A model generated the notes under the pieces. It saw only the letters and a list, made by a program, of their open reading frames with translations, made no database searches and was not told where the DNA came from. Positions 18,546-61,476 of a stretch of DNA of 64,000 bases are shown in pieces. A program made the position numbers and the translations under genes. The stretch is from a virus (Duplodnaviria > Heunggongvirae > Uroviricota > Caudoviricetes), in the IMG/VR virus record IMGVR_UViG_3300017705_000602; one strand, 5' to 3'. The first letter of the stretch is position 1. Each line of letters starts with the position of its first letter.

Positions 18546-18896
18546 ATGGTAGCTAAGGTTAATGGTAACCCAGAGCAAGGTGTATGGTTTGAACGCGATG
18601 TTTCATTTGTAGAAATCACTTCAGACGCAACCGATTTCGAAGTAGCAGATTTTGATGTTAACGGCATTGTTGATCAAGTAGTTCGTGTTATGCAAACACG
18701 TGGTACTGTGCTAGGTATCAGTCGCGAAAGCGACACTGTTCTACATTTAGTATACGGTCATGCAGGCGGCGAATTTACAGTTGCTATCCTTGACGAACTA
18801 AAAGCAGAACTTGACGCTATTGCAGATACCGGTACGTTCTCGCTAGTACTTGGTACTGGTTGGACAACATTTGGTTCAGAAACAACATCAAGCTAA
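18546..18896 (+). CDS. Putative virion structural protein (paralogue 1 of 3)
   Basis: AGGAG RBS; own promoter and terminator; N-terminal KVNG motif. Confidence 0.7.
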   Translation: MVAKVNGNPEQGVWFERDVSFVEITSDATDFEVADFDVNGIVDQVVRVMQTRGTVLGISRESDTVLHLVYGHAGGEFTVAILDELKAELDAIADTGTFSLVLGTGWTTFGSETTSS

Positions 18897-18916
18897 ACTG
18901 ATTAGTTAGGCATACT

Positions 18917-18942
18917 AAAAACGGACTTCGGTCCGTTTTTTT
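18917..18942 (+). terminator. Rho-independent terminator with a cUUCGg loop
   Basis: AAAAACGGAC-TTCG-GTCCGTTTTTTT. Confidence 0.9.
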
Positions 18943-18963
18943 ATGACCGTAGTTTCAGAAATT

Positions 18964-18971
18964 GATAAATA
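18964..18971 (+). promoter_or_regulatory. Late-type promoter motif
   Basis: GATAAATA just after the terminator, 29 nt before ATG 19001. Confidence 0.7.
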
Positions 18972-19000
18972 CACAAAACGATTATACTTAGGAGACAATC

Positions 19001-19507
19001 ATGACTTTACGAGTACACGGCGGAATCATTTCCGACCAAACTCTAACCGGTAGCTTGCTACACTTTAAAATCACTAAAGCGGCAGGCAACTTTGGATACG
19101 TTGTAAGTGACGGATCAGTTACTATTCCGCCATCAAGCAAAGGCGGTCCTGAAGGCTCAACTGTTACTTTTTATCAGCTTATCGATGATGGCGATGCAGT
19201 ACCAGAGTCAGCAGGCGAACTTGTATTAAGGGCAATTGCAGAAAAATGCACCGTTGTTCAGATCGGTTTAGTAGGAACACCAGACGTAACCGAAATACAT
19301 ATTGCAATCGAAAATACTGCAATTGGTTGGATTGACAACGCTAGCGAAATTGACACAGATGCAATGGCCACTGCAATTGCAGATTTAGGTTCAGTAACTG
19401 TGCCTACCACAAGCGGAACACCCGACGACAATACTGCGACACCTGTTACTGAAGCAATTGACCTTAGTGACGTTGCAGTTGAACTGGTACCTTACGTACT
19501 AGCATAA
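19001..19507 (+). CDS. Putative virion structural protein (paralogue 2 of 3)
   Basis: AGGAG RBS; RVHG...QTLTGSL N-terminus. Confidence 0.7.
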   Translation: MTLRVHGGIISDQTLTGSLLHFKITKAAGNFGYVVSDGSVTIPPSSKGGPEGSTVTFYQLIDDGDAVPESAGELVLRAIAEKCTVVQIGLVGTPDVTEIHIAIENTAIGWIDNASEIDTDAMATAIADLGSVTVPTTSGTPDDNTATPVTEAIDLSDVAVELVPYVLA

Positions 19508-48014: not shown

Positions 48015-50000
48015 ATGTCGGACATTAGAAAATGGATGCAGATTTTATCCGAAGACAGTATCGAACAAGGTTCCGCGGTCAAGTTGTCCGATGACTATGG
48101 CGGCGGAATTGGAACATTTGAACGACTGTCTGAAGATAATCCTGATATCGCAGTTATAAACGTTAAAGGTACTGCACAAGAGATACCTTTAACTTCTCTA
48201 CAAAAGGTTCTTGATCAAGATCACGAATACGGTGAAGACCCTTGTTATAATATAACCCCTGATCTTTTTGAGCCAGGCGCTAGTGTTCGTGTTAAAAACC
48301 TTTACGGTGGTGGTACTGGCGATGGCTACGGTGTGTTTGTTGCTTATTCAACAGACGGTCAAACAGCAATTGTTAATGTTGACAGCGAAGAAAGATCAAT
48401 ACCAGTTGATTTAGTGTATCCTGCAGACGAACAATGTGCAAAAGATAATTTTGCATCTGTTGGTAGCGATGGATCACAGTCACCTTTCACATCAGCTGGA
48501 GATAACGTACAAGATAAAGGAATATCAAAAATGAGCGACATGGAACGCTGGATGGATGCAGTATCGAATCCTAAGCAAGCCCCAGTTCAAGAAACTGAGT
48601 GCAACGATTGCGATTGCGGAGATTACGAGTGTACTACTTGTTTTCCGTTGTCCGAAGATGAATTAAGTTACGAAAGTATGTGTTCTGAAGAACCTGCCGC
48701 TGAAGAAGAAGATCTAGTTGAACTAGACATTGACAACAGCGAACATTACCCAGAAGACGATCTTGAAGACGAACCGGAACCACGTGTTGGCGATGACGAA
48801 GCAGTTGATATCGATTTAGGCGATGCAATGCCGTATGATAACACATTCGATGAACCGGACGCAGGTGTAGAATTAGGTGCATCAGAAGACGTTTCGGATT
48901 TACTTAGCAAGATCGATTATGTGCAAAACATGGGCATGTCAATGACTGATAGACATTACGATGTCGACCAGTTAATGAAAATGAAGCCGGACGCTATTAA
49001 ACGTATCTATGCTAAGGTAATTGGCGAAGCAATGGGCGAAAGCATCGAAGCAGATTTATTTGCAGAAGATCTTGGAAACAGCAGTGACGACGGTTCGGAC
49101 AGCTTATTAGTTGGCGACCCCGACGAAGGCAGAACATACACTTTAGTTGAGCCAGGTGACACTGTAATGTTTAAAGGGCATCAACTGGTTTATCAAGGCT
49201 TTTATCCTAAAGATGAAAACTATGCAGTTGTTGAGCTTAAAGGTCAACGAAAAATAGTTCCGATTGTGGACTTTACCAAGCATGCGGTACCAGGTGAAAT
49301 GGTTGAAACTGCATCAGGGTCAGTCAGTGTCGGTCCAGGTCTTGGTAAAATTCAAGATCGAGCAGGCGTATACGAAGCAAGCTCAATTGACCCTGCTGAA
49401 CTTAAATCGCTAGAAAGAATGGATGTCGAATCAGCTAAAGCAAAAGCCGCTGAAATGATACAAGGTTCTAAAACTTCCGATAAGCGTAAAGCACAGTTAG
49501 TACATAACGTGAGCAAATCGCGCAATGTTGTACAAGTATTACAGTTGATGTATAACTTGATGCTGTCGGGCGATGGCTTATCTACTGTAGGCTCTAAATG
49601 GCAGAAGAAGTACAACGAAGCGGTACAACCGCACCGCGGGAACGATACCGAAATATTCCGTGAGTTCAACGACGATGGCGAACTAGATCGTATGCGCCAG
49701 CTTGCTGGACTACGCGACGACGGCATTAACTCTGGTGCGCTTACACGCGATGACTTTAAAGATATGTTCTGGGATTACTGGGATAAGTCTAGCCCATCGT
49801 CACAGCATCAGTATCTAACAGCAGTGTTAGGCGATGACACTAATATCGAAGACTTTAGTGATGCGGCAGTTGAAGTGCTTGATCACATATTGAATGCTCA
49901 AGATCCAGCAGTTGTAGACAAGCAATTGCACATGCTACGTAGAATTGGAATGCCATTAATGTCAGTTTGTCCTGACACCGGCGAGTTTTATCCTGCATAA
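48015..50000 (+). CDS. Large acidic putative internal head protein
   Basis: Late motif upstream; three SH3/KOW-like beta repeats; RMRQLAGL motif. Confidence 0.6.
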   Translation: MSDIRKWMQILSEDSIEQGSAVKLSDDYGGGIGTFERLSEDNPDIAVINVKGTAQEIPLTSLQKVLDQDHEYGEDPCYNITPDLFEPGASVRVKNLYGGGTGDGYGVFVAYSTDGQTAIVNVDSEERSIPVDLVYPADEQCAKDNFASVGSDGSQSPFTSAGDNVQDKGISKMSDMERWMDAVSNPKQAPVQETECNDCDCGDYECTTCFPLSEDELSYESMCSEEPAAEEEDLVELDIDNSEHYPEDDLEDEPEPRVGDDEAVDIDLGDAMPYDNTFDEPDAGVELGASEDVSDLLSKIDYVQNMGMSMTDRHYDVDQLMKMKPDAIKRIYAKVIGEAMGESIEADLFAEDLGNSSDDGSDSLLVGDPDEGRTYTLVEPGDTVMFKGHQLVYQGFYPKDENYAVVELKGQRKIVPIVDFTKHAVPGEMVETASGSVSVGPGLGKIQDRAGVYEASSIDPAELKSLERMDVESAKAKAAEMIQGSKTSDKRKAQLVHNVSKSRNVVQVLQLMYNLMLSGDGLSTVGSKWQKKYNEAVQPHRGNDTEIFREFNDDGELDRMRQLAGLRDDGINSGALTRDDFKDMFWDYWDKSSPSSQHQYLTAVLGDDTNIEDFSDAAVEVLDHILNAQDPAVVDKQLHMLRRIGMPLMSVCPDTGEFYPA

Positions 50001-50012
50001 CATGCAATAACA

Positions 50013-50038
50013 AAAAAAGGCGCATTTGCGCCTTTTTT
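50013..50038. terminator. Bidirectional rho-independent terminator
   Basis: AAAAAAGGCGC-attt-GCGCCTTTTTT. Confidence 0.9.
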
Positions 50039-50039
50039 A

Positions 50040-50068
50040 TTGACTTTATTTTAGGACTCGTGTATACT
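50040..50068 (+). promoter_or_regulatory. sigma70-type promoter
   Basis: TTGACT-17 nt-TATACT right after the terminator. Confidence 0.8.
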
Positions 50069-50093
50069 AGCTAGGTAATACAAGGAGTATCGT

Positions 50094-50363
50094 ATGCAAG
50101 TATCTAAACATGCTGAAAAAAGAATACGTAAACGCTTAGGGATACCACGTAAAGCAATTGCAAAGTTTATCGATGAAGCCGAAACACGCGGCACACCTTT
50201 AAACCAATTCAAGGGCAGAGTAAAGAAATTTTACGATGCAATATCAATTAGACACAGTGCCGGAAACAAAACATTTAGTTATCGTGACTATCTGTTTATT
50301 ATGCAAGACGATATATTAATCACTGTGTACGAAGTTCCAAAATATCTACAAGGAAAAGTATGA
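50094..50363 (+). CDS. Small basic hypothetical protein
   Basis: AAGGAG RBS; SKHAEKRIRKR...ILITVY. Confidence 0.7.
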   Translation: MQVSKHAEKRIRKRLGIPRKAIAKFIDEAETRGTPLNQFKGRVKKFYDAISIRHSAGNKTFSYRDYLFIMQDDILITVYEVPKYLQGKV

Positions 50364-55089: not shown

Positions 55090-57121
<2,032 letters not shown>

Positions 57122-57151: not shown

Positions 57152-57736
57152 ATGGACATTGATACAGTAGTACAAGCGCAACTGAACACAAAATATTGGC
57201 GTCCACGAACGTTAGAGCATGCAGTACAGTACATTTACGGTACTTACGAAATTGATGATTACCAAATTCTATTGCTCGATGGCAGTTTAAAACAAGATCT
57301 AAAAGACGATTCGCACCCGGCAACCTGGAAAGAGTTTGAAATACACAGCCGACTTGACAAAGTTGCTTATGATCTAAACCTCGACGAAAAAGGCAGATCA
57401 GTTCGGGCGTATGAAGGGATTCATCATACTGGCTTTTACACTGAACTTGAAGACGATCAGGATCATGTTTATATCGAACTTTCTGTTATCGAAGAAGCCA
57501 CGCAACGAATATCATCGTCCTCGATACGTAAAGTAATAAAAAGAAACTTTAGTAAATATCGCATAACTGAAACTTCTAGTGTAATTGATCCTGAAACTAG
57601 TACTTACTTTAGTCAACTATATGCCTTTGTGAAAAATACATTGACAAGGCGTAAATTCGTTGTTAAAGTTACTAAACAAGAATTAACATATCATATGTTA
57701 ATCGGAAAATTCAGGAAGATGACGTGTACGCGATAA
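57152..57736 (+). CDS. Hypothetical protein
   Basis: 194-aa ORF. Confidence 0.65.
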   Translation: MDIDTVVQAQLNTKYWRPRTLEHAVQYIYGTYEIDDYQILLLDGSLKQDLKDDSHPATWKEFEIHSRLDKVAYDLNLDEKGRSVRAYEGIHHTGFYTELEDDQDHVYIELSVIEEATQRISSSSIRKVIKRNFSKYRITETSSVIDPETSTYFSQLYAFVKNTLTRRKFVVKVTKQELTYHMLIGKFRKMTCTR

Positions 57737-57742: not shown

Positions 57743-57795
57743 TTAGTTGGATAGACCGACTAACTTCACAAACATATAAGAGGAATTCTTATGAA
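57743..57795 (+). promoter_or_regulatory. NAD-salvage leader element, copy A
   Basis: TTAGTTGG-ATAGA-CCGACTAA hairpin, then AAACATATAAGAGGAATTCTTATGAA. Confidence 0.7.
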
Positions 57796-58879
57796 TAAAT
57801 CGCACGACATGGCCGTGTTAATTGGCCGCTTTCAACCGTTTCACATCGGGCATAAAGAAAACTTAAAATACACAATCGAGAATTGTACAAAAAATATTCT
57901 TGTTATTGTTGGCTCGAGTTTTCAGCCGCGCACTATTAAAAACCCATTTACATTTGAAGAACGCAAGCGCATGATCGAACAAGAAGTTCGCAGCATCGAC
58001 CCTGATGTAAATTGCACTATAGTTCCGCAACGTGATTATCTTTACGAAGATACCAAATGGGTAAAAGAAGTTCAAGAGCAAATTGCCGAAAATTACAAGA
58101 TATTTAACTATCTTGATTTAACTTCAAGCGACACTGCTAGAAAAAATGTGTGTATTGTCGGTCACGACAAAGATGAATCCACCTATTACTTGTCTTTGTT
58201 TCCGATGTACGATGTAGTCGATCCTGGCAAATTTGTTTGCATTGGCGATCATCAGATCAATGCAACACAAATACGCGAATTGCTGTTTGACAAAGGCATA
58301 GTGTTTGCCAAGTCAGCTGTGCCTCCAAGTACATACAGCATGATCGAAGACTTTGTAGAACAAGGTACCCATGCGCAACTGGTAAAAGAATATCAGTTTA
58401 TTCAAGGTTACAAAAAGCAATGGGAACACTCACCGTATCCACCATCGTTTAACACAGTTGATGCAGTTGTAGTTCAAGGTGGTCACATACTGCTGGTCAA
58501 ACGCAAGGCAGAGCCGGGCAAAGGTTTGTGGGCATTGCCGGGCGGTTTTGTTGACCCGGACGAAACGCTTGAGCAAGCAATGTTACGCGAGTTAAAAGAA
58601 GAGACTCGTATCAGTGTGCCAATGCCAATACTAAAGTCTGGGATCACATATCGTAGACAATTTGATCACCCCAAGCGCAGTTTGCGTGGACGCACATTTA
58701 GCGAAGCATTTTTACTGGAAATACCACTTGACCACAACGGACAGTTGGCCAAAGTCAAGGGCAGTGACGATGCAGAAAAAGCACAATGGATTCCAATAAA
58801 CGAAGCACTTGACATGAGCGAATGCTTGTTCGAGGACCATCATTCAATCATTAGCATGTTAGTTGCAAGGGCAAAATAA
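57791..58879 (+). CDS. nadM: Bifunctional NMN adenylyltransferase / Nudix (ADP-ribose) hydrolase
   Basis: GRFQPFHIGH; INATQIR; Nudix box GGFVDPDETLEQAMLRELKEET. Confidence 0.93.
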   Translation: MNKSHDMAVLIGRFQPFHIGHKENLKYTIENCTKNILVIVGSSFQPRTIKNPFTFEERKRMIEQEVRSIDPDVNCTIVPQRDYLYEDTKWVKEVQEQIAENYKIFNYLDLTSSDTARKNVCIVGHDKDESTYYLSLFPMYDVVDPGKFVCIGDHQINATQIRELLFDKGIVFAKSAVPPSTYSMIEDFVEQGTHAQLVKEYQFIQGYKKQWEHSPYPPSFNTVDAVVVQGGHILLVKRKAEPGKGLWALPGGFVDPDETLEQAMLRELKEETRISVPMPILKSGITYRRQFDHPKRSLRGRTFSEAFLLEIPLDHNGQLAKVKGSDDAEKAQWIPINEALDMSECLFEDHHSIISMLVARAK

Positions 58880-58882
58880 ATT

Positions 58883-59620
58883 ATGTCGAAACTGTTAGCG
58901 AAGTATATAAAGAAGGATCTGAAAGAAAACTACAACGGAGACTTCGTTAAGTATGTGATGAATCTTTCTGCACAAGATTCCATTAATGACTTTCGGGATG
59001 CAGTGTATGCATGTTCTTCGTTAACAGCCAAGCATTTTAATGAAATATTTAACAATCAAAACCGATACAGAACTGACAAGAAAATAGCTGGCGTTTTATT
59101 GTGTCGCGCATTAACGCACGCGGGCATAAAACGCCATGTTGTTACTAAATTCAAGTACAAGTCAGTGCCAATTACTGCACTGTACGACAAAGACGCCGCA
59201 CAGATTGTTAACAGTCCTAGTCTTTACAAATATGTTTACTTGTCTGACAATGGCTGGGGCGCTTATCGTTTGCGAGAATTTTACACAGCCAGGAGCAGCC
59301 TCGAAGTATTAGTTCCTATGCTAGATTGTGTTTCTACTTCCAGGCACGGTGGTGTTGACGTAGTGGTCAATTTAATAAAAATGAAACCGCGTATAATTGA
59401 ATGTCTCAGGCGACGACACCTCGAAGAGCTCACCGACAGAAACATTTCGTATCTGTTTGCAAGTATAAACAAGCCAGCAGTTATTAAAACTGTGTTAAGC
59501 GATAACATTACACTGGATGCCGAAGCATCAAAATATGCCGGTGAAGTATTCGCAATGATGGAAATGGCCGGCGAGCACGTCAGAAAAGAAGCAGTACACA
59601 TGCTTCGTTTATTAAGGTAG
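58883..59620 (+). CDS. Hypothetical helical protein
   Basis: 245-aa ORF. Confidence 0.65.
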   Translation: MSKLLAKYIKKDLKENYNGDFVKYVMNLSAQDSINDFRDAVYACSSLTAKHFNEIFNNQNRYRTDKKIAGVLLCRALTHAGIKRHVVTKFKYKSVPITALYDKDAAQIVNSPSLYKYVYLSDNGWGAYRLREFYTARSSLEVLVPMLDCVSTSRHGGVDVVVNLIKMKPRIIECLRRRHLEELTDRNISYLFASINKPAVIKTVLSDNITLDAEASKYAGEVFAMMEMAGEHVRKEAVHMLRLLR

Positions 59621-59624
59621 CATT

Positions 59625-59861
59625 ATGTCAGCATCAAGATCTATTAAATATCAACACTTTGTAGCAACCAAGCAATTACAGGTCGCGGCAGAATGGGGCG
59701 AGAATATCGCTACTGGAAATTATTTTATTGACAACGGGGGCTGGAGAGATTACAACCCTCGCGAACAAGCCGGTATCGAATTTGAATTTGAGCACGATGC
59801 TTTAACTTTTGTAAACCGCGTAGGTGGTACATATGAAGTACGAATGTTACCCGTTGAATAA
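59625..59861 (+). CDS. Small hypothetical protein
   Basis: 78 aa, AAGG RBS; IEFEFEHDALTF. Confidence 0.6.
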   Translation: MSASRSIKYQHFVATKQLQVAAEWGENIATGNYFIDNGGWRDYNPREQAGIEFEFEHDALTFVNRVGGTYEVRMLPVE

Positions 59862-59887
59862 GAATTTGGCATTTGCCGAATGCAAGC

Positions 59888-59933
59888 CCCTGGATAGACC
59901 AGGGCATTAAACATTAAGAGGAAATCTTATGAA
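59888..59933 (+). promoter_or_regulatory. NAD-salvage leader element, copy B
   Basis: CCCTGG-ATAGA-CCAGGG hairpin, then AAACATTAAGAGGAAATCTTATGAA. Confidence 0.7.
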
Positions 59934-61476
59934 CACTGAACTTTTTAAAAATGGCATCTTAGCGGCAATACGCGAAGAATACGGATCACTATCAGACACT
60001 GACTCATACAAATATACTCACCCTGCTCAGTTTCCGAAAGGTACTAAGAAAATGGTAAGTTATATTGAGTCACGCGGCGGAAAGTACAGCGAGACTGTTT
60101 GGGTGGGCGTTCAAGCGATTGTTGTTGATCAACTGCTTAAACCAGTTGAACGCAAGCACATTAAAAACTTGCTGGCGTTCGTGGAAGCACACTTGATGGG
60201 CAACACTGACCCGGGTCTCGAACTTGCGTTCGAAACTGTGGTAGACGAGTACAATGGTAAATTGCCAATACGTATTCGAGCTGCCAAAGAAGGGCTGGTA
60301 ATACCTGTTAAGAATGTGTTAGCAGTAGTCGAAACCACAGTTGAAGACGAACGGATCTTTCCGTTAACAAGCTACGTCGAAGCATTGCTTTTGCGTGTTT
60401 GGTCACCAACTACGGTTGCCACTGAAAGTTACAAGATCAAGCAATTGATCATGGAGTACTTAAAGTTTACAGCAGACGATCCTTCTGCAGAGATTGATCT
60501 AAAACTGCATGACTTTGGTTCTCGCGGTGCGTCAAGTTCATTGACTGCCGCATTAGCTGGGTTTGGTCACTTGGTGTCATTTATGGGCAGTGACAACACT
60601 ATTGCAAACTTCTTGGCTAAAATGGTTTATCAATCAGATACTGCGGTGGATGACTTTACTAACGTACCTTCTGTGTCGATTCCGGCCACTGAGCACAGCA
60701 CAACAACGTCACATGGTTTAGATAACGAAATCCAGATTGTGGAACAGATGTTTGATGCTTATGCTAAGCCAGGTGCATACTTTGCAACTGTTATTGACTC
60801 GCGTGATTTTCTTAGATTTATCCGCGAAATTGCCCCTAAATTTAAGCAACGTTTGATCGATTCGGGAGCCACGTGGGTCTTTAGACCCGACTCAGGTGAC
60901 GCAGTAAAAGTCCCTGTAAAAGTGGTTGAAGAACTGGACAAAGTGTTTGGTCACACAGTTAACTCAAAAGGTTACAAGGTACTAAACAATGTTCGAGTTA
61001 TTCAAGGCGATGGTATTGCTCACCAAGAAGTGAAAGAAATACTTGCAACCTTGACTTCGCCTGTGTTAAAATGGTCTGCAAGCAACATAGCTTTTGGGAT
61101 GGGCGGCGGCCTACTTCAAAAGAACGATCGTGATACTCAAAAGTTTGCGATGAAATGTTGCGCTATTTTAAACAACGGCACATGGATCGACGTTTACAAA
61201 AGTCCTGCAATTTATGATCCTGAAACTTGGGAAGTTGATCCTTCAAAAGCAAGTTTTAAGAAATCGAAAATGGGCAGACTCGAGTTGCTTTATAACACGC
61301 AAACACACAGTTACCAAACTGTAACTGCCGAAGACCTTGATAGTTTTGACGGTCAATTTGGTTGGGAACATGCACTCGAAACAGTTTACGAAGATGGTGA
61401 GCTTATAAGAGTCATGACACTCGACGATTTAAGGAAAAACTGTGCATTGGAAAAAGCAGTCACCAGCAGTAAGTAG
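59929..61476 (+). CDS. nadV: Nicotinamide phosphoribosyltransferase
   Basis: DTDSYKYTH, LHDFGSRG, PATEHS, RPDSGD, QGDG, FGMGGGLLQK. Confidence 0.95.
   Translation: MNTELFKNGILAAIREEYGSLSDTDSYKYTHPAQFPKGTKKMVSYIESRGGKYSETVWVGVQAIVVDQLLKPVERKHIKNLLAFVEAHLMGNTDPGLELAFETVVDEYNGKLPIRIRAAKEGLVIPVKNVLAVVETTVEDERIFPLTSYVEALLLRVWSPTTVATESYKIKQLIMEYLKFTADDPSAEIDLKLHDFGSRGASSSLTAALAGFGHLVSFMGSDNTIANFLAKMVYQSDTAVDDFTNVPSVSIPATEHSTTTSHGLDNEIQIVEQMFDAYAKPGAYFATVIDSRDFLRFIREIAPKFKQRLIDSGATWVFRPDSGDAVKVPVKVVEELDKVFGHTVNSKGYKVLNNVRVIQGDGIAHQEVKEILATLTSPVLKWSASNIAFGMGGGLLQKNDRDTQKFAMKCCAILNNGTWIDVYKSPAIYDPETWEVDPSKASFKKSKMGRLELLYNTQTHSYQTVTAEDLDSFDGQFGWEHALETVYEDGELIRVMTLDDLRKNCALEKAVTSSK

Follow-up and report, generated by a model that had tools for sequence, protein, structure and literature searches.

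The two NAD-salvage genes of this phage locus, nadM-Nudix and nadV, are separated by two other ORFs and are preceded by matching leaders, which raises the question of what these leaders are and how they could act. The window (the whole stretch of DNA analysed, 64,000 nucleotides from a Caudoviricetes virus, IMG/VR record IMGVR_UViG_3300017705_000602) had been the subject of a preliminary description, which reported two copies of a leader with a GG-AUAGA-CC hairpin (P1). Both copies are located where they had been reported, and their resemblance far exceeds chance. The features of the locus are as follows.

57641..57669, + strand: sigma-70-like promoter candidate, TTGACA-17-TAAAGT with TG extension (consensus match only)
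57743..57763, + strand: P1 of the nadM-Nudix leader (copy A), 8-bp stem with one U.G, AUAGA loop, G-C closing pair
57775..57793, + strand: P2 of the nadM-Nudix leader, UAUAAGA / UCUUAUG stem and GGAAU loop, with the SD in the loop and the AUG (57791-57793) in the 3' arm
57791..58879, + strand: nadM-Nudix (NMN adenylyltransferase and Nudix), 362 aa, CTP_transf_like 7.6e-9, NUDIX 3.8e-21
58883..59620, + strand: 245-aa ORF between the NAD genes, no leader, no family match, conserved in the related locus L001
59625..59861, + strand: 78-aa ORF between the NAD genes, no leader, no family match
59886..59905, + strand: P1 of the nadV leader (copy B), G-(bulged C)-CCCUGG / CCAGGG-C, AUAGA loop, G-C closing pair
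59912..59931, + strand: P2 of the nadV leader, UAAGA / UCUUA core and GGAAA loop, with the AUG (59929-59931) in or abutting the 3' arm
59929..61476, + strand: nadV (nicotinamide phosphoribosyltransferase), 515 aa, NAMPT_N 9.9e-20, NAPRTase 7.3e-38

Copy A reads TTAGTTGG-ATAGA-CCGACTAA, with eight pairs including one U.G, and the core of copy B (59888-59904) reads CCCTGG-ATAGA-CCAGGG, which reaches G59886-C59905 if the C is bulged. TGGATAGACC occurred exactly twice in the window, both times on the + strand. Downstream of both copies there is a near-identical block, AAACAT(A)TAAGAGGAA(T/A)TCTTATGAA; the start-site block described earlier was therefore recovered for the two window copies, although its AAACAT part is only semi-conserved outside the window lineage. 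The minimum-energy folds of both window leaders consist of P1 and P2, with the AUG inside P2 (-11.5 kcal/mol, z -3.3, and -13.3 kcal/mol, z -2.7). When a covariance model of the leader (R1) was run on both strands of the 64-kb window with filters off, only the two leader sites were scored (36.0 and 32.6 bits), the next-best score of 16.7 bits being the SD portion alone, in agreement with the earlier statement that there is no third copy. The possibility that P1 is an intrinsic terminator, a G+C-rich hairpin with a U run, was ruled out: the stems are followed by CUUCAC and AUUAAA, with no U run, and neither P1 site was listed in a terminator scan.

The promoter candidate falls within the last part of the preceding ORF, with P1 of copy A about 75 nt downstream, and the count of sigma-70-like consensus sites in the region was not above that in shuffles. 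The 245-aa and 78-aa ORFs were considered as candidate readers of the leader and rejected, as they had no family match and no informative Atlas neighbour. The 78-aa ORF is dissimilar to the 117-120 aa ORFs that bear the leader in other loci, and in L001 its counterpart continues across the P1 that belongs to the nadV leader. When cultured phages were searched at the DNA level for near and distant relatives of the window region, a 53-nt nadM stretch of Klebsiella phage K64-1 was the only one obtained. The window genes encode the same two-enzyme pathway as NARP2 (NadV and NatV/NadM-Nudix) of Vibrio phage KVP40. NARP2 was shown to counter NAD+-depleting defence, at the cost of overproducing NAD+ and consuming PRPP; that paper covers the enzymes and does not mention a UTR, hairpin, riboswitch or promoter (bioRxiv 10.1101/2024.02.11.579819).

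Leaders of related loci were collected and a covariance model was built from them, as the preliminary description had suggested, and the motif was conserved in the orthologous leaders. About 50 nadV and about 20 nadM leaders were detected in metagenomic loci with this model. In a complete 328-kb relative with terminal repeats, P1 was only found at nadV (39.8 bits) and nadM (26.3 bits), and the lower-scoring R1 matches were the SD portion alone. By scanning IMG/VR with an exact pattern, at least 120 viral contigs were matched and, among the matches listed, 87 of 121 were directly 5' of a NadV homologue; another exact scan, for the 10-mer together with TAAGAGGAA, gave two matches, both of which were discarded as chance hits inside a coding region. 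The gene immediately downstream of the leader is nadV, nadM-Nudix or a small ORF that opens the nadM operon. Direct reading also identified the motif before both genes in the cultured phages BUCT-ZZ01 (Synechococcus), RcXuper (Rhodobacter), and LucasX and RTH11 (Xanthomonas). The window, the 328-kb relative and the IMG/VR matches listed support a leader nearly restricted to NAD-salvage cistrons, in keeping with the NAD regulon that had been proposed.

Only three of 50 bacterial or MAG nadV loci carried the motif (L105, L111 and L119, with L105 being a short phage-like contig), and genome-wide searches of five of these assemblies detected no further motif. As R1 is AT-biased, with GC-rich true examples scoring just 14-17 bits, the low bacterial count does not establish absence from bacteria. 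The Rfam scan that had been called for showed that no existing family covers the motif: in Rfam 15, no family matched the window at gathering score, and the leaders of the window, L061 and L003 gave noise only at E up to 10. Literature on NAD+ riboswitches, nadV/NAMPT and hairpin translational repression gave no account of the leader either. The leader is an uncatalogued RNA family, absent from Rfam and from the literature searched, and it is almost certainly a real, conserved and NAD-specific RNA leader.

The conserved part of P1 is its cap, which throughout the family has a G-C closing pair and an R-N-A-G-A loop, usually AUAGA, on a stem of free sequence. In 69 distinct leaders, 85% of P1 cells pair compared with 56% in shuffles (0/500 shuffles reached 85%), two-sided changes were found in 147 P1 cells against 44 expected, and the closing G-C was kept in 63/63; with slid registers, P1 pairing was 22-43%. 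An independent IMG/VR set of 71 distinct leaders, fetched by a pattern without a complementarity requirement, gave 91% pairing versus 66%, with the closing G-C in 70/70. P1 was also recovered by RNAalifold on a plain MAFFT alignment, with two-sided changes in all 5 predicted pairs. The nadM orthologue in L001 retains P1 as TTAGCTGG-ATAGA-CCAACTAA, while P1 of its nadV is CCAGGG-AAAGA-CCTTGG, in which two pairs are altered on both sides.

Loop position 2 is variable, and the RNAGA loop is held across NadV proteins that are just 42-47% identical. Some lineages have their own caps, such as C-AGAGA-G (L003 and L040), GUAGA (RTH11 and L080) and UGAUGUAG or GUAG loops (K64-1 and Munch), and R10Z, a KVP40-like phage, is without the AUAGA cap. 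The excess of G.U pairs over A.C pairs in the stems is only modest (27 vs 16), so the strand assignment depends chiefly on the asymmetry of the loop and on the constant placement relative to the SD and AUG. Together with the covarying stems, these two properties support an element that acts at the RNA level, as had been argued earlier in preference to a double-stranded DNA operator.

P2, defined as an SD-in-loop hairpin of at least 5 bp ending at the AUG, was present in 68 of the 69 distinct leaders with 32 different arm pairs, compared with 2.3% in shuffles. The UAAGA/UCUUA pairing around the SD and start codon, noted earlier for the window, is part of P2 in both window folds. P2-type hairpins were also found at 15% of 164 other genes from the same loci and at 9 of the window's other genes; since about 10-15% of unrelated genes carry such a hairpin, P2 by itself lacks specificity. 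The linker between P1 and P2 is 7-22 nt long and variable in sequence. Pairing of the P1 loop (AUAGA) with the 3' arm of P2 (UCUAU) as a pseudoknot is perfect in L002 nadM and L007, and was rejected because it is not conserved elsewhere: in the window and in L009, L010 and L014 it is reduced to 3-4 bp or missing. An anti-SD in the 3' arm of P1 was ruled out too, as the P1 arms have no constant sequence. No alternative pairing or fold conserved across the leaders was found.

The placement of the leader is informative where nadV is split. In L181, L233 and L252, nadV is interrupted by a GIY-YIG/SegE-like (homing) endonuclease ORF, and a full leader is present on each half, with differing P1 stems, while the endonuclease ORF and an 81-aa ORF in these loci have none. 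Each half has its own leader copy without a promoter, which favours translational rather than transcriptional control, the mode that had been proposed from the window. In the window lineage, P1 is within a polycistronic region, and in L001 the preceding ORF ends inside it. A sigma-70-like promoter that places the start of P1 at about +2/+3 of the mRNA, with A as the predicted +1 base, is present in roughly two thirds of nadV-type leaders; the -10 hexamer has its 3' end exactly 6 nt upstream of AAGUCC in 69 of the 80 leaders whose promoter could be recognised. Structure, conservation, NAD-gene specificity and per-cistron placement are observed properties of the leader.

As for its function, we infer that the leader regulates translation, that a reader exists and which protein this could be. 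On balance, we think that it is a translational control element read in trans by a protein, a reading that we hold with some reserve. The leader would control translation cistron by cistron, at nadM-Nudix, nadV and, in some phages, the small ORF before nadM. P2 could be the effector: in this 5-8 bp A/U-rich hairpin the SD is confined to a 4-5 nt loop while the spacer and start codon are paired, so it would have to open for initiation. P1, 7-22 nt upstream, may be the specificity element, as a free stem with a fixed cap is the pattern expected of a hairpin that is read externally by a trans-acting partner. This partner could be a protein travelling with the module, which, when bound to P1, either keeps P2 closed or aids its opening, with the outcome that both enzymes would be produced in step and in proportion to need.

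NadM-Nudix is the most plausible partner, followed by NadV, and its assignment as the reader of P1 is tentative; to our knowledge, neither protein is known to bind RNA. The P1 label requires 3 changes on the NadM tree (0/500 shuffles were as low) versus 15 on the NadV tree, and the loci without P1 have one deeply divergent NadM clade in common, which is a hint that P1 tracks NadM. Incongruence between the NadV and NadM trees was set aside as a proof of this, as a single clade of P1-less NadVs was not rejected by the AU test (p 0.27). The association between NadM and P1 may reflect one evolutionary event, and P1 may simply be co-inherited with the neighbouring nadM.

Another explanation for the same structure is a new small riboswitch, in which P1, perhaps with P2 or the linker, would bind NAD+, NMN, ADP-ribose, nicotinamide or PRPP and shift the balance between open and closed P2. 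Restriction to NAD-salvage cistrons fits this explanation, and a metabolite could account for the spread of the element among phages of hosts from different phyla without any protein. The metabolic cost of NARP2 would be a reason for feedback, and guanidine-II is a precedent, a riboswitch made of hairpins of about 16 nt in which the loop is conserved and the linker varies. However, invariance in the leader is limited to a 5-nt loop, of which position 2 varies, and one closing pair, and the linker varies in length (7-22 nt) and sequence. The one tertiary pairing tested, P1 loop with the 3' arm of P2, is lacking in L009, L010 and L014, although perfect in L002 nadM and L007. There is neither a conserved alternative fold nor a constant anti-SD sequence in the P1 arms, no Rfam family matched, and the lineage-specific caps resemble co-evolution with a protein more than binding of a fixed ligand. 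We therefore consider a riboswitch unlikely. Slightly less doubtful is the broader proposal of a new class of metabolite-responsive RNA switch for NAD status, which could be either a minimal riboswitch with the ligand in the G-AUAGA-C cap or an RNA-enzyme-metabolite circuit, where substrate-free NadM-Nudix or NadV would bind the cap and be released by substrates or products.

It could also be that the leader has no dedicated reader and is a constitutive module. P1 would then stabilise the mRNA from a 5'-proximal position or bar processing, countering 5'-end-dependent decay, and P2 would hold translation at a set rate, giving the NAD proteins in matched amounts. The position of P1 at about +2/+3 in 69/80 nadV-type leaders with a recognisable promoter suits a stabiliser, identical cassettes on the split-nadV halves suit stoichiometric matching, and P2-like start sites are found at other genes too. 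A stabiliser, however, needs a stem rather than an invariant cap, whereas the closing G-C is kept in 63/63 and 70/70 leaders along with the RNAGA loop. P1 also lies within the transcript in the window lineage and where nadV is split, and the restriction to NAD genes is left unexplained, making such a module improbable. The least probable explanation by far is a double-stranded DNA operator for a dimeric NAD transcription factor (NrtR, NadR or NiaR). In its favour, nadM and nadV are each preceded by an inverted repeat, 17-29 bp in length; NrtR governs nadM-nadV and prs-nadV via 21-bp palindromes (PMC2330246), and copy A is exactly 21 bp. Nevertheless, the half-sites are wholly different within one genome (TTAGTTGG vs CCCTGG) and from one genome to another, yet they still pair; the conserved centre lacks symmetry, and the stems include G.U pairs. 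In addition, the NrtR core GT-N7-AC is off-centre in copy A and absent from copy B, and each split-gene half has its own copy without a promoter. Reading of the leader by a protein remains our preferred explanation.

Thoeris and SIR2-type systems are forms of NAD+-depleting immunity. If the leader is regulatory, it would be the first known control layer of the NARP2 counter-defence, one carried by each part of the pathway that is translated on its own. The phages that have it infect cyanobacteria and alpha- and gamma-proteobacteria or belong to many uncultured lineages. If the NAD-status switch is true, NAD rebuilding would be on only while a defence system destroys NAD+. A leader read by a metabolite would be a third NAD-related riboswitch class, one read by the enzyme would be a bacterial example of enzyme-mRNA autoregulation, and either could serve as a compact, portable part for NAD-responsive gene control. 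At about 50 nt, the leader is a prospective Rfam family that is abundant and easily tested in cultured phages.

Among known systems, the NAD+-I (nadA motif) and NAD+-II (pnuC motif) riboswitches likewise regulate genes of NAD metabolism in cis from the leader, and the SD is a target of NAD+-II as well. The leader differs from them in having no bulged tandem domains and no conserved pseudoknot, and in its genes, nadV and nadM in phages. Their models had no match in the window (gathering score) or in the leaders of the window, L061 and L003 (E up to 10), which is consistent with the preliminary view that it is neither. The guanidine-II riboswitch (mini-ykkC) also has two tiny hairpins with a linker of variable length, conservation in the loop and closing pairs, and the second hairpin at the ribosome binding site. 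However, both of its loops are ACGR and pair around the ligand, whereas in the leader only P1 has a conserved non-SD loop and the P1 and P2 loops are non-complementary; the window loops are AUAGA and GGAAU/GGAAA with no ACGR, and no Rfam match was obtained. Lambdoid boxB, which is read by N proteins, shares the short covarying stem, the purine-rich pentaloop (GAAAA or GAAGA, compared with RNAGA) and a location near the 5' end of early transcripts, but works with boxA and Nus factors in antitermination of whole operons, while the leader is tied to single cistrons beside the SD. The boxB loop is GNRA-like and starts with G; the first loop base of the leader is A in the window and G only in RTH11 and L080.

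The NrtR operators of nadM-nadV and prs-nadV operons control the same genes, and sensing of ADP-ribose would suit a phage facing NAD+ cleavage. NrtR, however, recognises a palindromic DNA site in which the half-sites are conserved and the core is GT-N7-AC (PMC2330246), whereas the leader has no conservation of its half-sites and the evidence favours RNA. Translational operators that are read by a protein beside the SD, namely the PyrR binding loop and the operators of T4 gene 43 and E. coli thrS, resemble the leader in having a variable stem and a fixed loop just 5' of the SD of the regulated gene. The minor cap C-AGAGA-G (L003 and L040) is the same as that of the PyrR loop (purine-rich AGAGA closed by C-G, inside an anti-antiterminator), while the main cap, G-AUAGA-C, is unlike it, and the PyrR binding site RF00515 gave no Rfam match even in L003, which has the C-AGAGA-G cap. 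NadV is a type II phosphoribosyltransferase unrelated to PyrR. All three are read by the encoded enzyme or by a homologue of a pathway enzyme, whereas the leader has a candidate reader only, and it differs from them in being common to two or more unlinked cistrons.

On re-reading the window sequence, the sequence and coordinates of both leader hairpins in the preliminary description proved correct. In each leader the upstream hairpin (P1) is followed by AAACAT and then by a second small hairpin (P2), whose arms are UAUAAGA/UCUUAUG in the nadM leader and UAAGA/UCUUA in the nadV leader. The loop of both P2s is the Shine-Dalgarno (SD) sequence GGAA, and the start codon lies within the 3' arm. For both leaders the RNAfold minimum-energy fold was exactly P1 plus P2, at -11.5 kcal/mol (z -3.3) and -13.3 kcal/mol (z -2.7). 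The features of this region are:

55496-57121, + strand: GroEL/Cpn60-type chaperonin gene (Pfam 2.6e-70), two genes upstream of nadM
57641-57669, + strand: nearest promoter-like site, ~75 nt upstream of copy A
57743-57763, + strand: P1 copy A, 8-bp stem including one U.G, loop AUAGA
57791-58879, + strand: NMNAT-Nudix fusion gene (nadM), behind the first leader
59888-59904, + strand: P1 copy B, 6-bp stem, loop AUAGA; a bulged C lengthens the stem to a G59886-C59905 pair
59929-61476, + strand: nicotinamide phosphoribosyltransferase gene (nadV), behind the second leader

Every gene in the NAD part of the window is on the + strand, and neither of the two ORFs between the NMNAT-Nudix gene and nadV had a family match. 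The order of chaperonin then nadM was also seen in L001, the nearest relative of the window; no close cultured relative was found in our searches. The sequence TGGATAGACC occurs exactly twice in the 64-kb window, both times on the + strand. That there is no third copy of the hairpin, as had been judged by eye, was upheld by a covariance model (R1, built from 45 leaders, its annotated pairs being those of P1 alone), which gave the two copies 36.0 and 32.6 bits when run on both strands with filters off, the next match (16.7 bits) covering the SD part only.

Relatives were chosen on their proteins, irrespective of the motif, so that loci lacking it would also be seen; the sample comprised NadV loci from IMG/VR and 80 from metagenomes. 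In L001, with a NadV 87% identical, the gene order is unchanged and both leaders are kept; its nadV P1, CCAGGG-AAAGA-CCTTGG, has two pairs altered on both sides compared with the window, and its nadM P1 is TTAGCTGG-ATAGA-CCAACTAA. In L002 (55%) and in L007, L009, L010, L014 and L028 (42-61%) the stem differs, the cap is unchanged and an SD-in-loop hairpin follows P1, its arms different again. Most metagenome loci at 44-47% identity likewise have a new P1 stem, the common cap and the SD-in-loop hairpin, so the motif is kept in orthologous leaders. Across 86 loci, R1 found 50 nadV leaders (37-66 bits) and about 20 weaker matches, which precede nadM or a small ORF heading the nadM operon. The model is AT-biased, giving only 14-17 bits for three of the four leaders of phages RcXuper and LucasX and none for those of phage BUCT-ZZ01. 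GC-rich leaders were also seen in bacterial assemblies, namely an Acetobacteraceae MAG (L119:2928-2979) and a Methylococcaceae MAG (L111:1854-1908); one example reads CCGGCG-GAUAGAC-CGCCGG, then an SD hairpin.

In the one relative that is complete (G002; 328 kb, terminal repeats, CheckV 100%), P1 was present only at nadV and nadM, and the lower-scoring R1 matches lacked the hairpin; an extra match on the L009 contig was the leader of its nadM. An exact pattern fixing AAGTCC, GATAGAC and GGCA (flanks and cap) and leaving the arms free matched at least 120 IMG/VR contigs. Among the 121 matches listed, 87 were directly before a NadV homologue, and most of the others were non-hairpin sequences inside coding DNA.

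The compensatory stem changes proposed from the two window copies were borne out among the relatives. In 69 distinct leaders fitted to R1, standard pairs filled 85% of P1 cells, compared with 56% when the 3' partners were shuffled, a level attained in none of 500 shuffles, and two-sided changes were found in 147 P1 cells (44 expected). Pairing fell to 22-43% once the partner was shifted by 1-3 columns, and the closing G-C was invariant (63/63). As this alignment was fitted to the model, two model-free checks were added. RNAalifold on a plain MAFFT alignment recovered the P1 helix, with two-sided changes in all five predicted pairs, and in 71 distinct IMG/VR leaders retrieved by the pattern the free arms were paired in 91% of cells (66% shuffled), with the closing G-C in 70 of 70. 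The caps in the first leader set were GAUAGAC (58), GAAAGAC (4), AAUAGA (3) and GACAGAC (1); G-GUAGA-C was found in L080 and phage RTH11, and in L003 and L040 the cap in front of each of the two genes is C-AGAGA-G. The loops thus conform to R-N-A-G-A, position 2 being unconstrained. At the fourth stem position, counted from the loop, ~30-40% of leaders have no pair, most commonly an A.A (alignments A5 and A6); the apical helix is then 3 bp long and stands on an internal loop of 1x1 or 2x2, and this position may belong to the recognised feature.

A P2 hairpin with a minimum of 5 bp, in most cases 6-7, and with its end at or within the AUG was found in 68 of the 69 distinct leaders, which have 32 different arm pairs and a loop of 4-8 nt containing GGA or GAG. 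Such hairpins arose in 2.3% of mononucleotide shuffles, in 15% of 164 other SD-bearing ORFs of the same loci and at nine other genes of the window. P2 is therefore strongly enriched and belongs to the leader unit, yet it is not unique to it; the NAD-specific part of the leader is P1.

A -35/-10 pair was found in 80 of 118 distinct nadV-type leaders, and in 69 of these 80 the end of the -10 hexamer lies exactly 6 nt upstream of AAGUCC. In those 69, P1 would therefore begin at about +2/+3 of the mRNA, with the A at the foot of P1 as the predicted +1. Near-consensus sigma-70 promoters (TTGACA-17-TATACT) lie upstream of nadV in L019-L089, for example at L061:2880-2930. The window differs: the promoter scan found no promoter-like site before copy B, the one nearest to copy A lies ~75 nt upstream of it, and in L001 the preceding ORF extends across P1; a 5'-terminal P1 is thus common but not required. 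Elsewhere in the window, the intergenic regions 18894-19006 and 49998-50099 contain clear intrinsic terminators, with a GC stem and a T run, and sigma-70-like promoters behind them; host RNA polymerase therefore appears to read at least some of the genes of this phage.

The level at which the leader acts can be approached through loci in which nadV is split into two ORFs, each with a P1-P2 leader:

L181:4181-6865, split nadV
L181:4938-6074, the splitting homing-endonuclease ORF, 378 aa, with GIY-YIG/SegE-like matches just below Pfam cut-offs
L233:7269-9909, split nadV
L252:7010-9650, split nadV

L264 is split too, judged by its identical junction. NAMPT_N and the beginning of NAPRTase fall in the N half, and the remainder in the C half. 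Each half has a full leader (51 and 59 bits in L181, whose nadM carries a third copy), and neither the endonuclease ORF nor an 81-aa ORF in these loci has one. The end of the endonuclease ORF extends into the C-half leader, in front of which no promoter was found. The two P1 stems of L233 differ and share an identical cap, and a leader-led C-terminal half occurs in at least four IMG/VR contigs. Since the leader recurs on each separately translated piece, even within a transcript, this argues for control of the translation of each cistron and against action at operon transcription. In other loci, small ORFs of unknown function directly before nadM carry the leader instead of nadM:

L041:451-813, L066:333-686, L074:1554-1910 and L191, ORF of 117-120 aa with a GGYPYW stretch
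L051:287-613 and L172, ORF of 108 aa (phrog_12218)
L201, ORF of 155 aa

We infer that P1 is bound by a reader, either a protein or a metabolite. By direct reading, the leader stands before both genes in the cultured phages BUCT-ZZ01 (Synechococcus elongatus), RcXuper (Rhodobacter capsulatus) and LucasX and RTH11 (Xanthomonas), so a reader specific to one host is unlikely, and one would expect it to be universal, to move together with the module or to be a metabolite. A free stem, a fixed cap and a variable linker without conserved alternative pairing are typical of protein-read hairpins. The one tertiary pairing proposed was rejected, as it was not conserved across the compared leaders. Two-hairpin leaders with other caps precede nadM and nadV in the enterobacterial jumbo phages K64-1 (Klebsiella; L159, 2480-2560 and 3620-3700) and Munch (Salmonella; L287, 2400-2483 and 4100-4187), with the loop UGAUGUAG before nadM and nadV loops ending in GUAG. 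Their stems covary between the two phages, and they may be a sister class of the NAD leader. Caps that differ by lineage in this way are more readily explained by a protein that co-evolves than by a ligand that stays the same.

A candidate for such a protein is hinted at by loci with nadM and nadV and without any P1 (L018, L024, L025, L027, L030, L031, L033, L039, L046 and L052). The NadMs of these loci all fall in a single, deeply divergent clade (support 100/100, branch length 2.57) and share no more than 30-34% identity with that of the window. Their NadVs are ordinary and intermingle in the tree with NadVs from loci that carry P1; the P1 label requires 3 changes on the NadM tree versus 15 on the NadV tree. 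The divergent NadM has both usual domains, without an inter-domain segment of ~18 residues and without the RS-RGR motif of the Nudix domain, which may differ in specificity. This pattern is taken as a hint that NadM-Nudix is tied to P1. However, a single origin of the P1-less NadVs was not rejected by the AU test (p 0.27), and therefore the association may stem from a single event, and mere linkage could account for it.

To summarise, the observation of a leader common to both NAD-salvage genes was confirmed; this leader RNA is real, widespread and specific to NAD salvage, and it likely controls translation. It was found in no catalogue or paper among Rfam 15 and the literature searched; no Rfam 15 family matched the leaders at the gathering score or at E up to 10, including both NAD+ riboswitch classes and the PyrR site. 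The paper describing the NARP2 pathway established the enzyme functions, noted the PRPP cost and NAD+ overshoot, and is silent on leaders (bioRxiv 10.1101/2024.02.11.579819). In bacteria the same genes are controlled by NrtR operators, but these are palindromic DNA sites that have a GT-N7-AC core and half-sites of conserved sequence (PMC2330246), a description that the leaders do not fit. Functionally, the nearest analogues of the NAD leader are protein-read translational operators adjoining the SD, the guanidine-II riboswitch with its two mini-hairpins, and boxB-type pentaloop hairpins.
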